NCBI GenBank assembly: GCA_038734945.1
Contig: JAVYOA010000002.1
Span: forward strand, 248,001-312,000
DNA from: Fervidicoccaceae archaeon
GTDB lineage: Archaea > Thermoproteota > Thermoprotei_A > Sulfolobales > Fervidicoccaceae
Length of the DNA: 64,000 bases
Direction of reading: 5' to 3'
Shown piece after piece: positions 21,001 to 27,000 of the stretch. A program made the position numbers. Position 1 is the stretch's first letter. Every line of letters starts with the position of its first letter.

Positions 21001-24000
21001 CTAGGGTCTTTCTAAGTGGTCTTATCTTTCCAGGATTATCGATAGTCCCTATGTGTGCTTGCATAACCAGCTTCATCAGCTCAACCCTAATTTCGTTGAG
21101 CTTCTCCTTTCTCTGCTCCGGGGTCATCTTCCTTATCTCATCCGGACTGAGGCTCACTGCTGTTCACCTCCTGCTGCTCTTCAGCTGGCTCTTCCTTCTT
21201 CTCTTCCTTAGGCTTGGCCTCAACTTCCTCCTTCTTCTGAATGAATTCCTGCAAATTTATACCAGCTTCCTCTGGAGTGCGTATAAGCAAGGTATCCTTC
21301 GTTCTCTGCGGCTTCACTATTATGACCTTCACACCATAAATTCCAGGCTTGAGAAGGGCATGAGCAACTGCTTTGTCAACGATATAAGTTACCTGTTCAC
21401 CAGTCTTGTAAATTTTCCCCGCCCTGAACTTCTCGTATCTGGCTCTCTCGCTTGTTATTTTTCCGCTTATTATTATTTCCGCTCCTATTGCTCCAGCACT
21501 CATTATTCTCTTCAATGCCGCGAAGGCAAGCCTTCTAAAATGAAAGCCCCTCTCCAGCGATACGGCCAATCTAAAGGCAACAACTCTCGCATCCAGGTCA
21601 GGATTTTCGACTGGCATTACAGTTATTTGAGGATTCTCCAAGCCAAAATAATTTTCAAAAATTGTGGAGAGATTCTTTATTGTTTGGCCCCTTCTCCCAA
21701 TTATGAGAGCGGGTCTTTCTACCTTTATTACTACTCTGGTACCCAGAGGAGTCCTGTACACATCGACTCCCGAATATCCTGCTCTATAGAATTGTCTTGC
21801 CAGGTATTCGTCAACTTTAACAAGAGACATTGACTTCTCGATGAAATATCTCTTCACGTTTACCATAACCTTCTCACCTTCATGCCTCCTTAACTACTAT
21901 TTCTATATTGGAGTGTCTTCTGTACTTTGGGGTTGATCTCCCAAAAGCTCTTGGCATGTACCTCTTCAGAACGAAGCCCTTCTTGACAGAGATGTGAATT
22001 ATTCTGAGCTTCTCGACATCTAGATCCTTTCCCTCTGCATTCGCCTCAGCGTTCCTTATGAGCTTCAACAGTATCTTGGCTGCCTTCACTGGGTATTTTC
22101 CCATTGGGATCCCCCATCTATCACTCAAACCGCTCTTGTGGGGTATCTTTTTGTTATGAGTCCAGTTTGGAACAGGCTCCTCCAACCTGATTACCTTCTC
22201 CAGGAACTTCTTCGCATCTTCTGTCCTCATTCCCTTTATAGCATTAGCTAGGTTGATTACCTTCTTGGGGCTTATCGGCGCATCCCTTGCCACAGCCTTA
22301 GCAATAGAGCGCTCATCCTCAAACTTAACACTGTATCTCCATGCTCCCATTGATATCTACCTCACTTGAGAGCAGTGAACATGGAGCTCCTTGTTGCCTT
22401 AAGGCCAGGCTCTCCATGCTTTACTGATTTGGTTGTTGGAGAGAACTCTCCAAGCCTTTTTCCTATCATTTCTGGAGTGATCCTGACTGGAACAAATTCC
22501 TTTCCATTGTAGATAGCTATGGTTAGACCAAGCATTTCAGGTAAGATTATCATGCTCCTCTGATGAGTTCGGATTATCTTCTTTGAGGTCCTTCGAGCTT
22601 TTCTTATTTTCTGAAGGAGCTTGATCTGCTGGGGGGTGAATCCCCTTATAATGCTCCTCCTTTCTCTCGATGGAAATAGCTTCACTAAATCATCCATTGG
22701 AACATCGATGAGCTTATCTATAGTATACCCTCTATACCTTATTCCTTTCCACTCGCTATCTATCTCTATGTTGCTCATACCATACTTCCCTTCTGAATTT
22801 TTTGGATTAAGCTTGAGGTCCAATAGGACCAGTGCAAGTTTAAACTCGCGTAAAAACGTTATTGATTCCCGGTTTATAAGTCTGACCTTGAAGCTATATA
22901 TGGTTGATAGTATAGGATTCCTGCAGCATTAAAGATAAGCTTGAACCTCAGCATCAAGAACTTCCTTGAGCTCATTAACGTGTTTTTCCGTTGTATAAAC
23001 AAATATCTTAATGTTCTTTCTCCTTAACCTATTTATCACATGCACATAGGATTCGTCTGCAACGGTTTGCTCCATGTCGCTCACAATTATCAGATTGTCT
23101 CCAGGCTTCAGCGCAGCCTCAACCTTTCTCAGGGCCCTTGAAATATTAGTGTATCCAGATGTGCCGGCAGCGATTATCTCCTCTATTAAATGCAGCTTGG
23201 AATGCCATTTTTTCATTGATATTTGCTTTACATCCTCATCGAAGAGATAGATTCTCTTCAATGTATCGTATAGAGAAGCTACGAGGGCCACAGCCTTACC
23301 ATAATGTTTTCTCATGCTATCGCTCTTGTCAATCAGAAGAACTGCCTCCTTCTTTCTTATCCTGCCAATGTATACGGGCACTGGATAATTATTTCTCATT
23401 GTCAAGTAGACTGTCCTTCTGACATCGAACCTGGACTTTCTCTGAACGCTTCTTATTTTTCTTCCTCTCTCGCTTTTTTGTCTAGCACTATTCATCATGC
23501 TGTACGCTATTTGCTCTGCCAGCGATCTTTTGCCCTTCATAATCAGGTACTTTATGACATCTGCTGTGAACTCCTCTCCCATTTCTCTTGAAAGCACTGA
23601 GAGAGCCCAAGGAAGCTCTGGATTATATGCTAATTTCCCAATAGTTCTCTCAATAAACGAATACCTGTTCCCCAGGGATCTACCCTCCTCGCTCTCATAG
23701 GATCCCTTTCTCTTCTGGGATGCTCTTGCTATATGATCTTTCAGAAGTTCAAGATAAGCCTCGTTTCCAGTTCTATAGTAATTTCTGAGCATTTCTATCT
23801 TTCTGTATATATTCAACTTCTCGAAGTTCTCTATGGTATCCAGCTTCATTCTCTTCAACTTCTTGAAACTCATCTTTTCCATATCTTTCCAGGTAAGCTC
23901 ATACCCTTCAGTTCTTCTCCTTTCTGTTGTTTTCCTCCTTTCCTTCCTCTCCCTTTTTTCATGTGGCGCTTCCTTTTTTTGCTCTTCAATTTTCCTCTTG

Positions 24001-27000
24001 TATGGAGAGCCTCTGAGGACTTTCTCCAGCTTCTCGACGTCCTCCTGCCTTTTAGCAAAGACGCTGAGCAGAACCTTTGAGAGGGGAAAATAGTTGTAGT
24101 GAGTTAGCATCCTCGCTGTTCTATATAATCTTATAGCTTTCTCAATCTCCCCCGAGCTAATTTTTGCTCCCATCTCTCTCATAGCATGTGCTATTCTGAC
24201 TATCTTCTCTATTTCCTCATCATCATTGAATGAAAGATCCTCTCTTGCTGAGGTCATAGCTCAGCTATACCCTCCTTTCCAAATGCATTTTCACTATCTC
24301 CATTATGATGCTCTCTTCTTCTGGTCTCTTCACAAGGGTAGCCTTAGCTCCATCTATTAGATCCTCGCTCCTAACCTTCTCGTGGTTTCTCAGTTGAGCT
24401 ATCCTGGCACTTATTCCCATCCATCTGACGCTATCGGCTACTCCAGGTCTGTAGAGAAGGTCGGTTTTCCTTATTTCCTCTATAGCTCTGAGCGCTGCTA
24501 ACACTGTATCCTCATCATACAGATCAACAGCTCTTCCAAGCCTCAGTTTCAATATCTCTAGCTCTTTGTTCAAGGTAGGATATCCGAAGGTTATCCTGAC
24601 TACCCTGCGCATAAATGCATCGCTGAGCTCATTTTGAGCAAGATCCTCTGGATTGCTTGTAAATATTATTTGAAATCCCTCTCCAGTAGCTCTGTAGACT
24701 TTCTTCAACTCAGGGATGATTATTCGCCTTTTGTCTATGATGTCTAGAAGCAAATTTTGGAACTCCTCGCTGCTTCTCCTAATTTCATCAATCAGTATGC
24801 CGCTGTCCAAGATTAGAGAAGCTAGAAGAGGTCTGGGGACAAAGGAGTTCTCGTTGAAACCTTCTTTGTATGCTCTGAGTGGATGGAAATCGCCAATAAC
24901 TCTATATTCATCGTAGTTCTCACTGCATGGCAGCACGAAAGCCCTTCTGCCTGCCCATAGCGTTAGCAGTGCCTCTCCTATTTCCGTCTTTCCGGTACCC
25001 GGAGGACCTTCAAACAGAACTGGAAAACCCTCAATGAAAGAGGAAAAGACGAGCGTTATTACATCCTCATCCACCAGCAATTTGTACTTCTCTCTCAGAA
25101 CCCTGGCTGCTTCTCTGGGATTTCGTACGCTGGGCATCCTCTCATATGCCTTGTCATAAATTTCATAAACTTTTTCCACTATGGAGTCCTGAGTCTCTAT
25201 GGACTCTTCCTCCATTTTTTCGGTCATTTTTTCCACTTTCTCAACGATCTGGAGAACTGCTTCAAGATAAAAAATTGAGTTCAAACGTTAATATAATCTA
25301 CTTTGATACCTCTCTCCTTTCCGATAATTGAGCTAACAATTTCCACTATTTTTTTCTCCAGGCCTGGTTCCAATGACTCTCCTTTAAATTCTATGTATCT
25401 GAATTCCTTCACGAAAGATCTGTGCTCAATAGGCTCCATCCCCATCAGATTGGATAGAATTTCCTTTATTTTGTTGTGCTCGTCATCATAGAATGTCGTA
25501 TAGAAAATTCTGTAAGCCTTCGTCAAAGATAATCACCTGCGGTCTCAGTTTGCACCCCTCATCAATGGGACCTCAGCAAATGTAGTGCGATCATTCCGCA
25601 GAGGGGCTATTGAGTTCTCTGGACTTTTCCTTTTCTTCTTCCCGTTCTTCTAGCAGCTATATGCCCTACTTTTCTTCCTGGCGGCGCTCTTCTTGAGACT
25701 GTTGTAGGTTTGCTCTCAGATTGGTGGCTTCCTCCTCCAAAAGGATGAGAAACCACGTTCATAGCAACTCCTCTGACCTTAGGCCACGGTCTGGATTTTG
25801 CCTTCCATTTGTAATAGGCATTTCCAGCCTTCATGAGAGGCTTCTCTATTCTTCCTCCTCCTGCTGCTACTCCAATCGTTGCCCTCGAACGAATGTCTAT
25901 CTCCTTGATTTTTCCGCTGGGAAGTACCACTGTTGCCGTAGCTAGGCTCTTTCCCGTAATCTGAGCATATCCCCCTCCAACTCTCACCAGCTTTCCACCA
26001 TCTCCAGGCTTGAGCTCAATATTGAAGATCTGCGTACCCTCCGGAATCGACGAGAGAGGAAGTATGTTTCCGTTAGCGACCTTCGCCTGTGGACCTATTT
26101 CAATGATCTGCCCTACATAGCTACCTTCCGATGCTGGAGAGTAGAAGACCTCCCCGTTCTCCAACTTTATTTCTGCTAGAGGCGTCCAGCGTCCAGGGTC
26201 ATGAACTATATTTGTTATGATGCCCCGAAATGTCCTATCCAACGGAAGCTCGGGATACCTAGCTGGAGCAACTCTAAGATGAGTTGGAGCTCTGAATGTG
26301 GGGGATCCCCTTCCTTCCCTCTGTGATAGAATCTTTTTTCCCACTCTTTCTCACCTCACAGGAGACCAAGCCTTGTTGCTATTTCCTCTGCATTGAATTC
26401 GGGATGTAGCTTTATGAATGCCCTCTTCTCTCCCCTCATTGTTATCAGTGTCCTAACTTTTTCCACTCTCACTCCGAATCTCCTCTCGAACTCTTCCTTT
26501 ATTTGGAGCTTCGTAGCATTTCTCTGCACAACGAAAAGCAGAGTATTGTATTTCTCTATATAGTTAATTGCCTTTTCAGTATGCACCGGATAAAGCAGAA
26601 CCTGCTCACTACTCACTCTTTATCACCACCAAGCCTGAGAATCTTTTGTTCAGCTCCTCCAAAGCTCCATTGCTTATGACTGTAAGTCTTCCTGGAACTC
26701 CTCCAGGAGCTAGCATGGCTACAGAAACATCTCTCGCATTAGAGACATCCACACCGGGGAAGTTCCTGACGGCTCTAGCAAATGGGCTATTTGCTGACTT
26801 TAAAATGAACAGAACGCTTCTGGGCTCGACGTATCTTCTTCCTCTCATCTTCCCCTTTCCTGCCCTTATCCTCGTCCTTTCATATGATCTCTCTATATCT
26901 TCCCATACTCCAATTTTCCTCAGAAATTCCCTTGCAAGCAGAGCCCTGTTGATATTCGATTCTACATCGTCCTCAACTATGATTGGTAGGCTGTCTCCGT

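Follow-up and report, generated by a model that had tools for sequence, protein, structure and literature searches.

Known MoxR/VWA systems

Midasin (Rea1/Mdn1) is the eukaryotic pre-60S remodeling ATPase, one giant chain in which six AAA modules are fused to a MIDAS domain, and its tie to the ribosome was established by experiment. Ro60 consists of a TROVE helical ring and a VWA/MIDAS domain and binds misfolded small RNAs. In the bacterial NorQ/NorD and CbbQ/CbbO systems, the MoxR ATPase (~300 aa, with a single AAA module) and its larger adaptor come from two adjacent, separate genes, and the clients are metalloenzymes encoded alongside. A general mechanism for MoxR/VWA pairs has precedent in portions of PMC9976466, which include the finger model of NorD, and of PMC7159879, which describe ternary MoxR-vWA conflict systems. 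Here we compare with these systems a MoxR/VWA pair that lies within an archaeal ribosomal protein cluster.

Gene content of the locus

The window is a stretch of 64,000 nucleotides from the genome of a Fervidicoccaceae archaeon, and all of its features given below are on the minus strand. ORF calling and Pfam assignment gave the order L2, an 81-aa ORF, an AAA_5/MoxR ATPase, a VWA_CoxE adaptor and S19-L22-S3, reproducing the co-directional three-gene insertion between L2 and S19 of the preliminary description. L2 (uL2) is at 25607..26344 (PF03947, E 1.9e-42). S19 (uS19; PF00203, E 1.1e-31) was called as 22362-22823 and has an internal ATG at 22778, from which it spans 22362..22778; the cluster continues with L22 (21880..22350; PF00237, E 1e-28) and S3, and L23 was also identified by the Pfam scan. 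RNA-acting genes that do not encode ribosomal proteins occur elsewhere in the same cluster, one for a SPOUT methyltransferase before L3 and one for RNase P subunit p29. The genome also has a second MoxR/VWA pair, placed amid tRNA/rRNA modification genes.

The adaptor (442 aa) occupies 22929..24257 and the ATPase 24265..25284 if read as 339 aa from a TTG. A public gene call instead starts the ATPase at the ATG at 25227, giving 320 aa, which is consistent with the N-termini of its relatives and is the more likely start. The 4-nt overlap with the 81-aa ORF that had been reported is present from the TTG, but under the likelier start it becomes a gap of 53 nt. An SD-like CAGGTGAT precedes the start of the 81-aa ORF, while SD-like motifs are weak at the starts of the ATPase and S19, each of which has AT-rich boxes upstream, so the ATPase and VWA pair may have its own promoter.

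The 81-aa ORF (sm81; 25281..25526) had no match in Pfam or NCBIfam. Its AlphaFold2 model (pLDDT 94.9) has the topology beta-alpha-beta-beta-alpha-beta, in agreement with the ferredoxin-like fold proposed for it earlier, and the closest PDB structures, at a weak E of 2e-3, are PII-like. The three genes do not make up one module, and the phyletic pattern of the 81-aa family is uncoupled from that of the pair: it is present without the pair in 39/52 genomes of family f9 and 8/8 of genus g13, and is nearly missing from the pair-bearing family f6 (1/63). The 81-aa ORF is therefore an independent ferredoxin-like gene, a neighbor that the module can lack.

The ATPase and the adaptor

Both family assignments were confirmed, with the ATPase at 67.3 bits to PF07728 AAA_5 (cut-off 22) and the adaptor at 54.6 bits to PF05762 VWA_CoxE (cut-off 26.4). 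The Walker A motif of the ATPase (GPPGTGKT, residues 93-100 of the 339-aa form; 24985..25008) is invariant in 13/13 sequences across families, as are D166 and E167 of Walker B (L-I-D166-E167; 24784..24795) in the same alignment. Between the window's family and orthologues in other families the median identity of the ATPase is 57%, and in the same comparison the flanking ribosomal proteins have 46% (L3), 54% (L22), 55% (L23), 58% (S3), 59% (L4), 63% (S19) and 66% (L2). The ATPase is thus conserved on a par with its ribosomal neighbors and is under strong purifying selection, with housekeeping-like constraint. In the ATPase tree each taxonomic family forms one clade, and the 10 changes are the minimum possible, as expected of a gene that has been vertically inherited. 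Among 1.84 billion cluster representatives the entire orthogroup is one cluster at 510 bits, and the next match scores 160 bits.

The adaptor had no Pfam match other than VWA_CoxE and a sub-threshold one to VWA_2. In its AlphaFold2 model (pLDDT 85) the N-terminal domain (aa 12-259; 23481..24224) is all-helical by secondary structure, and structure searches with the model found no confident fold match for this domain. Compared with the other families it lacks ~200 aa, seen as a gap in family f1 against homologues of 610-700 aa. A Lys/Arg-rich linker (aa 88-117; 23907..23996) is predicted to be disordered (pLDDT <50) and has 42% K+R, measured over the slightly wider aa 85-120. A basic segment that is conserved in the alignment and has a nearly invariant R288 (aa 262-300; 23358..23474) precedes the VWA core and is a candidate pore finger as in NorD. 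The remainder (aa 301-442; 22932..23357) has the VWA fold, with a VIA-align Z of 16.3 and rmsd of 2.6 A over 142 residues against solved VWA domains. The MIDAS motif DxSxS (D310-K-S312-D-S314; 23316..23330) is completed by T370 and D394, and all five MIDAS residues are unchanged in 45/45 aligned homologues.

The window adaptor is strongly basic, with pI 9.8 and 21% K+R. Across the adaptors measured the median pI is 9.93 (range 9.46-10.94, n=113), in contrast to 7.0-8.6 for the paralogous or fused VWA proteins examined, and only 11% of the genome's ORFs of >=300 aa reach pI 9.5. The adaptor diverges fast, with ~26% identity between families. Such divergence would suit a partner in an anti-virus conflict system of the ternary MoxR-vWA kind, and in family f3 a Cas4-like nuclease gene lies upstream of the pair. 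We consider this role very improbable, since PADLOC gave the adaptor no family and the ATPase only two stray matches at E ~3e-4, the pair is single-copy and vertically inherited with a slowly evolving ATPase, no third effector component is conserved with it, and the Cas4-like gene remains where the pair is lost.

Comparison with described systems

The pair shares with NorQ/NorD and CbbQ/CbbO its arrangement as two adjacent, separate genes for a single-AAA ATPase and a larger adaptor; sequence similarity is at the superfamily level only. As in NorD, the VWA domain is C-terminal with its MIDAS site intact. NorD is the adaptor's best Foldseek match (9qhe_G, E 4.1e-7). The VIA alignment with NorD is also the longest one, reaching Z 14.9 over 191 residues (model 247-442) and covering the segment before the VWA core. 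The differences are that ribosomal protein genes adjoin the pair instead of metalloenzyme genes, and that the window's adaptor is strongly basic and carries an unrelated N-terminal domain, helical and of unassigned fold.

The preliminary description had proposed the pair as a possible forerunner of midasin, which likewise combines AAA_5-type modules with a MIDAS domain. Outside the orthogroup, midasin proteins stand out among the closest matches, but their high whole-protein scores are sums over repeats. With the ATPase profile, the best single midasin domain scores 27.9 bits, no better than CbbQ at 31.3 bits or NorQ at 27.1 bits, and we rejected a special kinship. The MDN1 MIDAS domain aligns to the adaptor from model residue 239 with Z 13.7 over 162 residues, and generic VWA domains align better. 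The pair differs in having a single AAA module, with the adaptor as a protein of its own; since its 81-aa neighbor is ferredoxin-like, its system has no UBL-domain ligand. With these scores and an orthogroup limited to one class of Thermoproteota, the proposed ancestry is unsupported. The pair's tie to the ribosome comes from gene order only.

Ro60 resembles the adaptor in that its N-terminal part is helical and its VWA domain C-terminal. Ro60 chains are in the Foldseek list at E 1.5e-6 over ~490 columns, which we treat as a lead only: the rmsd is ~20 A, the TM-score is 0.26, Ro60 is outside the top 50 by VIA-align Z, and the Pfam scan of the adaptor gave VWA families only.

A CoxD/CoxE-like role, in which the pair would mature Mo enzymes of the xanthine dehydrogenase (XDH) or CO dehydrogenase family from a neutral position in the operon, had been offered as the dull alternative. 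The adaptor belongs to VWA_CoxE, CoxD is also a MoxR ATPase (in the part of PMC3893208 that treats it), and the genome does carry the four XDH-family large-subunit genes reported earlier. These lie on two contigs, C9 and C1, neither of which carries the pair, and the phyletic patterns contradict the reading. Compared with the XDH-type enzyme (PF02738), the pair occurs in 27/29 versus 0/29 genomes in family f10, 3/3 versus 0/3 in f13, 1/1 versus 0/1 in f4, and 44/67 versus 5/43 sampled in f3. Conversely, PF02738 is in 42/42 genomes of f11 and 33/43 of f9, where the ATPase orthologue is in 0/47 and 0/52. The CoxD role is taken by a different paralogue, a weak one (89-94 bits) that in f11 and f2 is situated at 1-2 kb from the gene for the Mo enzyme in 5/5 listed places. 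Nor is the pair in the GvpN or MadB families, NCBIfam matches to which are far below their cut-offs. The Mo-enzyme reading is largely refuted, and we give it next to no credence.

Distribution of the pair and its linkage to S19

At a threshold of >=450 bits (paralogues score <=95 bits), ATPase orthologues were found in 139/351 genomes of the class, whose members are heat-loving, and in none of ~340 genomes of the phylum outside it. Because the orthogroup does not extend beyond this one class of Thermoproteota, the pair cannot be a general archaeal factor. The VWA profile matched 131/325 genomes of the order. The families earlier listed as empty of the adaptor are so (f2 0/14, f5 0/1, f7 0/6, f8 0/26, f11 0/47, f9 1/52, the lone f9 match being weak and unrelated), and the search for ATPase orthologues across the class found the pair absent from these six and from f17 and f18. 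It is also absent from 8/12 species of genus g9, where the locus has the same layout minus the two genes, and from one genome of the window's own family (G152, 98% complete). The pair has often been lost, even inside one genus, and is dispensable in many lineages.

Where the pair is present, S19 is its most constant neighbor, being immediately downstream and co-directional in 83/130 loci (82 genomes; at least 79 of 324 genomes had been reported) and within 2.5 kb in 110/130. Six gene orders, implying at least five rearrangements, hold the pair near S19, L2 or L3: L2-pair-S19 (f1, f6); IleRS-Cas4-like-pair-S19 with L2 elsewhere (f3), the segment pair-S19-L22-S3 also occurring in f4, f13, f14 and f16; L2-S19-x-pair-x-L3 and L3(-) ... 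pair, S19(-), L2(-) (both f10); pair, S19(-) ... L2 (f12); and pair ... 4 kb ... S19 (f15). The module had been said to lie elsewhere in f10, but 24/26 loci of that family retain L2, S19 or L3 within the fetched +-7 kb. The ATPase and adaptor are at most 11 nt apart in 106/106 loci and overlap in 98, a number that may be overcounted because each ORF was taken to begin at its first start codon. The pair is truly linked to ribosomal protein genes, by an association that is old and stronger than previously described.

Thirteen of the 130 loci, all in f3, have no ribosomal protein gene nearby, and in the two of these that we inspected the pair is flanked by the genes for the Ile- and Arg-tRNA synthetases. 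These loci bear on two readings. One is that the pair is a chaperone for a non-ribosomal complex and entered the L2/S19 junction a single time, in the class ancestor; we regard this as unlikely, though with a real claim to attention, and hold the same view of its corollary that the position has been kept only because the ribosomal cluster rearranges slowly. Single origin and vertical descent match one old insertion, the pair has repeatedly been lost without visible replacement, it has moved away in those 13 loci, it may have its own promoter, and MoxR/VWA clients are diverse, mostly enzymes, in the sections of PMC3893208 that cover them. However, the operon has been broken around the pair several times with the pair each time still by S19, L2 or L3; the departed pair is between synthetase genes in both loci inspected; the ATPase is constrained like ribosomal proteins; and the uniformly high pI of the adaptor is not common to the paralogous VWA proteins examined.

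The other reading is that the pair acts on a different component of the translation apparatus, for example on tRNA synthetases or on a complex that modifies tRNA or rRNA, or that it supplies zinc to zinc-ribbon ribosomal proteins, and does not remodel ribosomal particles. The synthetase genes flanking the pair in f3, the setting of the genome's second MoxR/VWA pair, and metal insertion as a frequent activity of such pairs (in a portion of PMC9976466) are in keeping with it. The synthetase flank is restricted to one family, and S19 is by far the more constant neighbor, so we find this reading distinctly unlikely.

A possible ribosome-directed remodeler

The preliminary description proposed a dedicated ribosome-biogenesis machine. 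As a general one this is unlikely, given that whole families and most g9 species do without the pair. These losses and the restriction to one class count against the ribosomal reading, as do the possible own promoter, the codon adaptation of the ATPase (65th percentile, not marking high expression, although the measure is poor here), the fact that genes inserted in a strongly conserved operon can ride along without a functional tie, and the predominance of metalloenzymes among known MoxR/VWA clients (in part of PMC3893208). In its favor are the linkage kept through rearrangement, the vertical descent, the constraint on the ATPase, the intact motifs, the adaptor charge, the tight coupling of the two genes, the presence of the SPOUT methyltransferase and p29 genes in the cluster, and the precedent for such a mechanism in other MoxR/VWA pairs.

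Gene order and the basic charge of the adaptor suggest action on ribosomes. In such a mechanism the ATPase would form a hexamer, and one adaptor would dock on the ring through its conserved basic segment, like NorD on NorQ. The MIDAS-bound Mg2+ may grip an acidic side chain of a client, while the very basic helical domain and the Lys/Arg linker would hold rRNA. ATP hydrolysis would then pull on the adaptor, so that a component might be seated or released in assembly, or heat-damaged ribosomes repaired. We tentatively favor, at somewhat less than even confidence, the explanation that the pair is a lineage-specific chaperone of the translation machinery, whose most likely target would be the ribosomal subunits, or else a ribosomal protein close to uS19.

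The genes between L2 and S19

In the window, L2 (25607-26344) is preceded on the minus strand by L3, L4 and L23 and is followed on the same strand by an 81-aa ORF (25281-25526) that belongs to no Pfam or NCBIfam family, a 339-aa ORF (24265-25284) that matches AAA_5 (PF07728, 67.3 bits, cut-off 22), a 442-aa ORF (22929-24257) that matches VWA_CoxE (PF05762, 54.6 bits, cut-off 26.4), S19 (22362 to 22778 or 22823), and then L22, S3, L29, RNase P p29, S17 and further ribosomal protein genes, these and the other ribosomal genes being ORFs identified with Pfam. We call the two middle genes the ATPase and the adaptor, and the two together the pair. 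The preliminary description gave the same ORF order, which stands, and a 4-nt overlap between the ATPase and the 81-aa ORF, which is doubtful because a public annotation begins the ATPase (320 aa) at the ATG at 25227, a start that agrees with the N-termini of its relatives. Public records label the gene 'MoxR family ATPase', nothing further. The genome is 1.34 Mb and 99.95% complete, and the named genomes closest to it are Fervidicoccaceae MAGs.

Shine-Dalgarno-like motifs are strong before the 81-aa and adaptor genes and weak before the ATPase and S19 genes. Between the adaptor stop codon and the S19 ATG lies a 150-nt spacer (22779-22928) with a run of five Ts and then TTTAAA about 60 nt before the ATG, which could be a terminator and a promoter splitting the pair from S19. 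When promoter-like boxes before the ATPase, adaptor, S19, L22 and L2 starts were compared over all loci, there was no clear positional peak, the start codons being uncertain. A scan of 20000-30500 against Rfam gave zero matches at E-values up to 0.1, and the spacer between L2 and the 81-aa gene folds no better than its shuffles (z +1.13). A look for RNA data sets containing the locus listed none, and in three metatranscriptome runs, taken from the study whose DNA data matched it best, 0 reads mapped to 8.1 kb, a result that says nothing about expression. Codon adaptation, scored against the ribosomal genes of the window, puts the ATPase at the 65th percentile and the adaptor at the 96th, a measure that is uninformative here because those same ribosomal genes are spread from the 22nd to the 100th. 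Ahead of L3 we also noted a RidA/L-PSP gene and a SPOUT (Methyltrn_RNA_3) methyltransferase gene (28699-30011); the SPOUT gene accompanies L3 in families f10, f12 and f13 as well.

Linkage to S19 across the order

The adaptor profile matches 131 of the 325 genomes of the order. We fetched 7 kb on either side of all 131 places and searched these stretches by tblastn for the ten proteins of the window, leaving out L173, a weak match (E 4.6e-6) with no ATPase and no ribosomal gene, so that 130 loci were compared. S19 lies immediately downstream of the pair and co-directional with it in 83 loci from 82 genomes, which bears out and extends what the preliminary description had observed. Another 30 loci show some other arrangement with L2, L3, S19 or L22, 13 have none of these four, and 4 are truncated by a contig end. 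Within 2.5 kb of the pair, S19 is found in 110/130 loci, L22 in 83, L2 in 59 and L3 in 34. The ATPase and adaptor genes are adjacent, with a gap of at most 11 nt, in all 106 loci where both ORFs are complete.

The surroundings of the pair differ from family to family. The order is L2, 81-aa, pair, S19 in f1 (the window's own family) and L2, pair, S19 in f6. In f3 it is radical-SAM, 81-aa, Ile-tRNA synthetase (IleRS), Cas4-like, pair, S19-L22-S3, with L2 elsewhere. Family f10 has two forms, one on a single strand (L2, S19, methyltransferase, pair ... SPOUT, L3, L4, L23, L22, S3) and one with L4(-), L3(-) ... pair, then S19(-), L2(-); the earlier statement that the module lies elsewhere in f10 is wrong, both forms keeping the pair near L2, S19 or L3 genes. 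We found pair, S19(-) ... L2 in f12 and L3(-), SPOUT(-), 81-aa, pair, S19 in f13. In the sister order, f14 and f16 have pair-S19-L22-S3, and in f15 S19 comes after the pair beyond about 4 kb of inserted genes. All 13 loci lacking ribosomal neighbors belong to three genera of f3, and two of them, examined more closely, have the genes for the Ile- and Arg-tRNA synthetases on either side of the pair.

Several loci have features of their own. An adaptor-S19 fusion in L131 is only apparent, as one stop codon separates the two genes. On contig C2 of genome G082, the stretch ATPase-VWA-S19-L22-S3 is present twice (L101, L102), inverted and with identical scores, for which an inverted duplication and a faulty assembly are the alternatives. 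Two loci without the pair, L217 (G152) and L225 (G184), have no S19 after L2 within the fetched stretch, and breakage at the L2/S19 junction seems to be general in the order. The Cas4-like gene of f3, a stand-alone PD-(D/E)XK nuclease gene between IleRS and the ATPase (L054:3934-4584, L136:9385-9948, L146:9739-10446), keeps its place in genomes that lost the pair.

Distribution, descent and loss

With the ATPase profile, complete orthologues score at least 450 bits and paralogues at most 95, with none between. By this measure, 139 of the 351 genomes of the class carry an orthologue: 4/7 in f1, plus the window's genome, 44/67 in f3, 1/1 in f4, 44/63 in f6, 27/29 in f10, 6/8 in f12, 3/3 in f13, and, in the sister order, 2/2 in f14, 6/7 in f15 and 1/1 in f16. 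Families f2, f5, f7, f8, f9, f11, f17 and f18 have none. In a phylum sample of 401 genomes, the best match among the roughly 340 outside the order was 129.7 bits. Among 1.84 billion cluster representatives, the orthogroup is one cluster at 510 bits, the next scores 160 and all others at most 120, the weaker matches being for the most part AAA-VWA fusions and giant proteins of the multi-AAA type. A related-locus search in named genomes gave only 2 loci, and a word-index search with the adaptor only 6 matches. Cultured carriers include, by the names given in the sources, Staphylothermus marinus, Pyrolobus fumarii and Fervidicoccus fontis.

Outside the class, the proteins most closely related to the ATPase carry AAA_5 and VWA fused in a single chain of 600-760 aa (L213:4995-6821 in genome G411; L214:4788-6836 in G613), and one of them adjoins an RNA polymerase Rpb5-domain gene. 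The window's genome itself has a second MoxR/VWA pair outside the window (C2:93227-95834; L215:5227-7834), a 388-aa bpMoxR-type ATPase and a 482-aa VWA protein. It adjoins genes for Sua5/YrdC, an RsmB/PUA methyltransferase, a TYW2/Trm5 methyltransferase and a class II Asp/Asn/Lys-type tRNA synthetase (PF00152), which is another translation-related neighborhood.

In a FastTree phylogeny of 130 ATPase rows (117 complete ORFs, the window, 8 sister-order rows and 4 outgroups), each family forms a single clade, and the 10 label changes are the minimum possible. The tree is compatible with a single origin of the pair, vertical descent and later losses. A role as a defense system has this inheritance pattern and the lack of PADLOC support speaking against it.

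The pair is carried by 4 of the 12 species of genus g9 and missing from 8, and two of the pair-less loci read radical-SAM, 81-aa, IleRS, Cas4-like, ArgRS, which is the carrier order minus two genes. A 98%-complete genome of the window's family has L3-L4-L23-L2-81-aa, after which both the pair and S19 are missing. The pair is clearly dispensable, and this is an observation in favor of regarding it as a passenger trapped in the ribosomal operon, an explanation that we consider unlikely, if far from negligible.

Maturation of XDH/CODH-type molybdenum enzymes, in the manner of CoxD/CoxE, had been named as the dull alternative, and adaptor homologues in other families also match VWA_CoxE. We sought the MoCo-binding domain of these enzymes (PF02738) in 266 of the 325 genomes of the order, and this role is essentially refuted. 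The domain is found in 0/29 genomes of f10, where 27 carry the pair, and in 0/3 of f13, 0/1 of f4 and 5/43 of f3, all pair-bearing families; conversely, f11 (42/42) and f9 (33/43) have the domain and neither has the pair (0/47 in f11). The Mo-enzyme gene in f11 and f2 has another, weakly related ATPase 1-2 kb away at all five places listed, and the four XDH genes of the window's genome are on other contigs than the pair.

The 81-aa protein had been taken as part of a three-gene module. Its family occurs in 149/325 genomes of the order (for instance window 25281-25526 and loci L103, L136, L218-L221 and L227), and it is a separate gene because its presence is uncoupled from that of the pair: it is present without the pair in 39/52 genomes of f9 and 8/8 of genus g13, it is in 12/12 of g9, and it is nearly missing from f6 (1/63), where the pair occurs. 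On this phyletic pattern we rejected it as a third subunit. The predicted structure is ferredoxin-like and confident (pLDDT 94.9), with weak structural matches to PII-like proteins and ESM Atlas scores of at most 0.81, which are leads only. Conservation of two His residues and of the motif EFR[YF] points to a candidate ligand site, and in f3 the gene is always immediately upstream of the IleRS gene.

The ATPase and its adaptor

Of the 117 ATPases we aligned 13, chosen to span the families; in all 13 the Walker A motif GPPGTGKT and the Walker B residues D166/E167 are invariant, as are many other positions. The median identity between the window's ATPase and its non-f1 orthologues is 57% (n=114), within the 46-66% of the neighboring ribosomal proteins. 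The protein is acidic (median pI 5.7) and reaches the cut-off of neither named MoxR subfamily tried from NCBIfam (GvpN, for the GvpN/CbbQ/NorQ group, 47 bits against 266.8; MadB, 81.5 against 475).

The adaptor is about 26% identical across families, over the VWA domain alone, and its length is 402-455 aa in f1 against 610-700 aa elsewhere, the f1 proteins being without about 200 aa of the helical part. The MIDAS residues D310, S312, S314, T370 and D394 (DxSxS...T...D) are invariant in 45/45 aligned adaptors, chosen from 118 as representatives. The adaptor is uniformly basic, with a pI of 9.46-10.94 (median 9.93, n=113), against 7.0-8.6 for paralogous or fused VWA proteins. Its AlphaFold2 model (pLDDT 85) combines an N-terminal domain made wholly of helices with a disordered linker of Lys/Arg, a conserved segment that is basic, and a VWA fold, which VIA-align superposes on solved VWA domains with Z 16.3 and rmsd 2.6 A over 142 residues. 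A predicted complex of adaptor, S19 and Mg scored 0.15 against a mark of 0.32, too low to speak for or against binding. For the N-terminal 450 aa of a long adaptor, all ESM Atlas scores were at most 0.81 and are leads only. Foldseek likened the N-terminal domain to Ro60/TROVE (E 1.5e-6, rmsd about 20 A), a likeness that is a lead only; VIA-align did not bear it out, though it barely covered the N-terminal part.

Comparison with midasin

The pair had been read as a midasin-like ribosome chaperone and possible forerunner of midasin. Midasin/Rea1 has six tandem AAA modules and a C-terminal MIDAS domain fused in one chain, whereas the pair has a single AAA module in about 320 aa and an adaptor encoded by a separate gene. 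In midasin the ligand of the MIDAS domain carries a ubiquitin-like domain, whereas the only small neighbor of the pair at its locus is ferredoxin-like, not beta-grasp, and not co-inherited. When the ATPase profile is searched against the PDB, midasin comes first by whole-protein E-value (7.4e-24), a value summed over several AAA modules; by best single domain midasin scores 27.9 bits, CbbQ 31.3 and NorQ 27.1, so the ATPase is no closer to midasin than to these two. VIA-align to the adaptor gave Z 14.9 for NorD (191 residues) and Z 13.7 for the MIDAS domain of MDN1 (162 residues), and both alignments reach further upstream than those of generic VWA domains.

On these sequences, we see no case for midasin having descended from this pair, and a forerunner role is highly improbable because the orthogroup is confined to one class. 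The relation would be one of analogy, both being built of MoxR-plus-MIDAS parts. One group derives midasin and dynein from mobile prokaryotic MoxR systems, with no ribosomal link mentioned in the available excerpts of its papers (PMC3495828, PMC7159879).

A proposed ribosomal client

The reading we find most likely, at somewhat under an even chance, is that the pair is a class-specific MoxR/VWA remodeller with a ribosomal client. We favor it because the linkage to S19 persists through rearrangements, the ATPase is constrained at the level of ribosomal proteins, the adaptor is basic with an intact MIDAS site, and the Mo-enzyme alternative fails. More tentatively, the pair may be an ATP-driven archaeal ribosome remodeller, the first prokaryotic AAA+ machine for ribosome assembly or repair, and a functional counterpart to midasin, evolved independently out of the same MoxR-plus-MIDAS parts. 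As part of this larger and more doubtful proposal, rRNA would be gripped by the basic helical domain of the adaptor, and the pull on a ribosomal protein near uS19 would come from the adaptor's MIDAS site.

The literature that we searched yielded no archaeal counterpart to the AAA+ ATPases behind eukaryotic ribosome assembly. The available excerpt of one review treats three such ATPases as eukaryotic, archaea appearing there only through the unfoldase VAT (PMC6920918). We found no paper describing the locus; Snider & Houry 2006 and Wong & Houry 2012, which were outside the search, may cover an archaeal MoxR subfamily to which this family belongs. Whether the MoxR-plus-MIDAS design has been recruited to ribosomes more than once can be tested concretely on this MoxR/VWA pair, which matches ribosomal proteins in its slow evolution and has kept its place next to uS19 across a class of hyperthermophiles.
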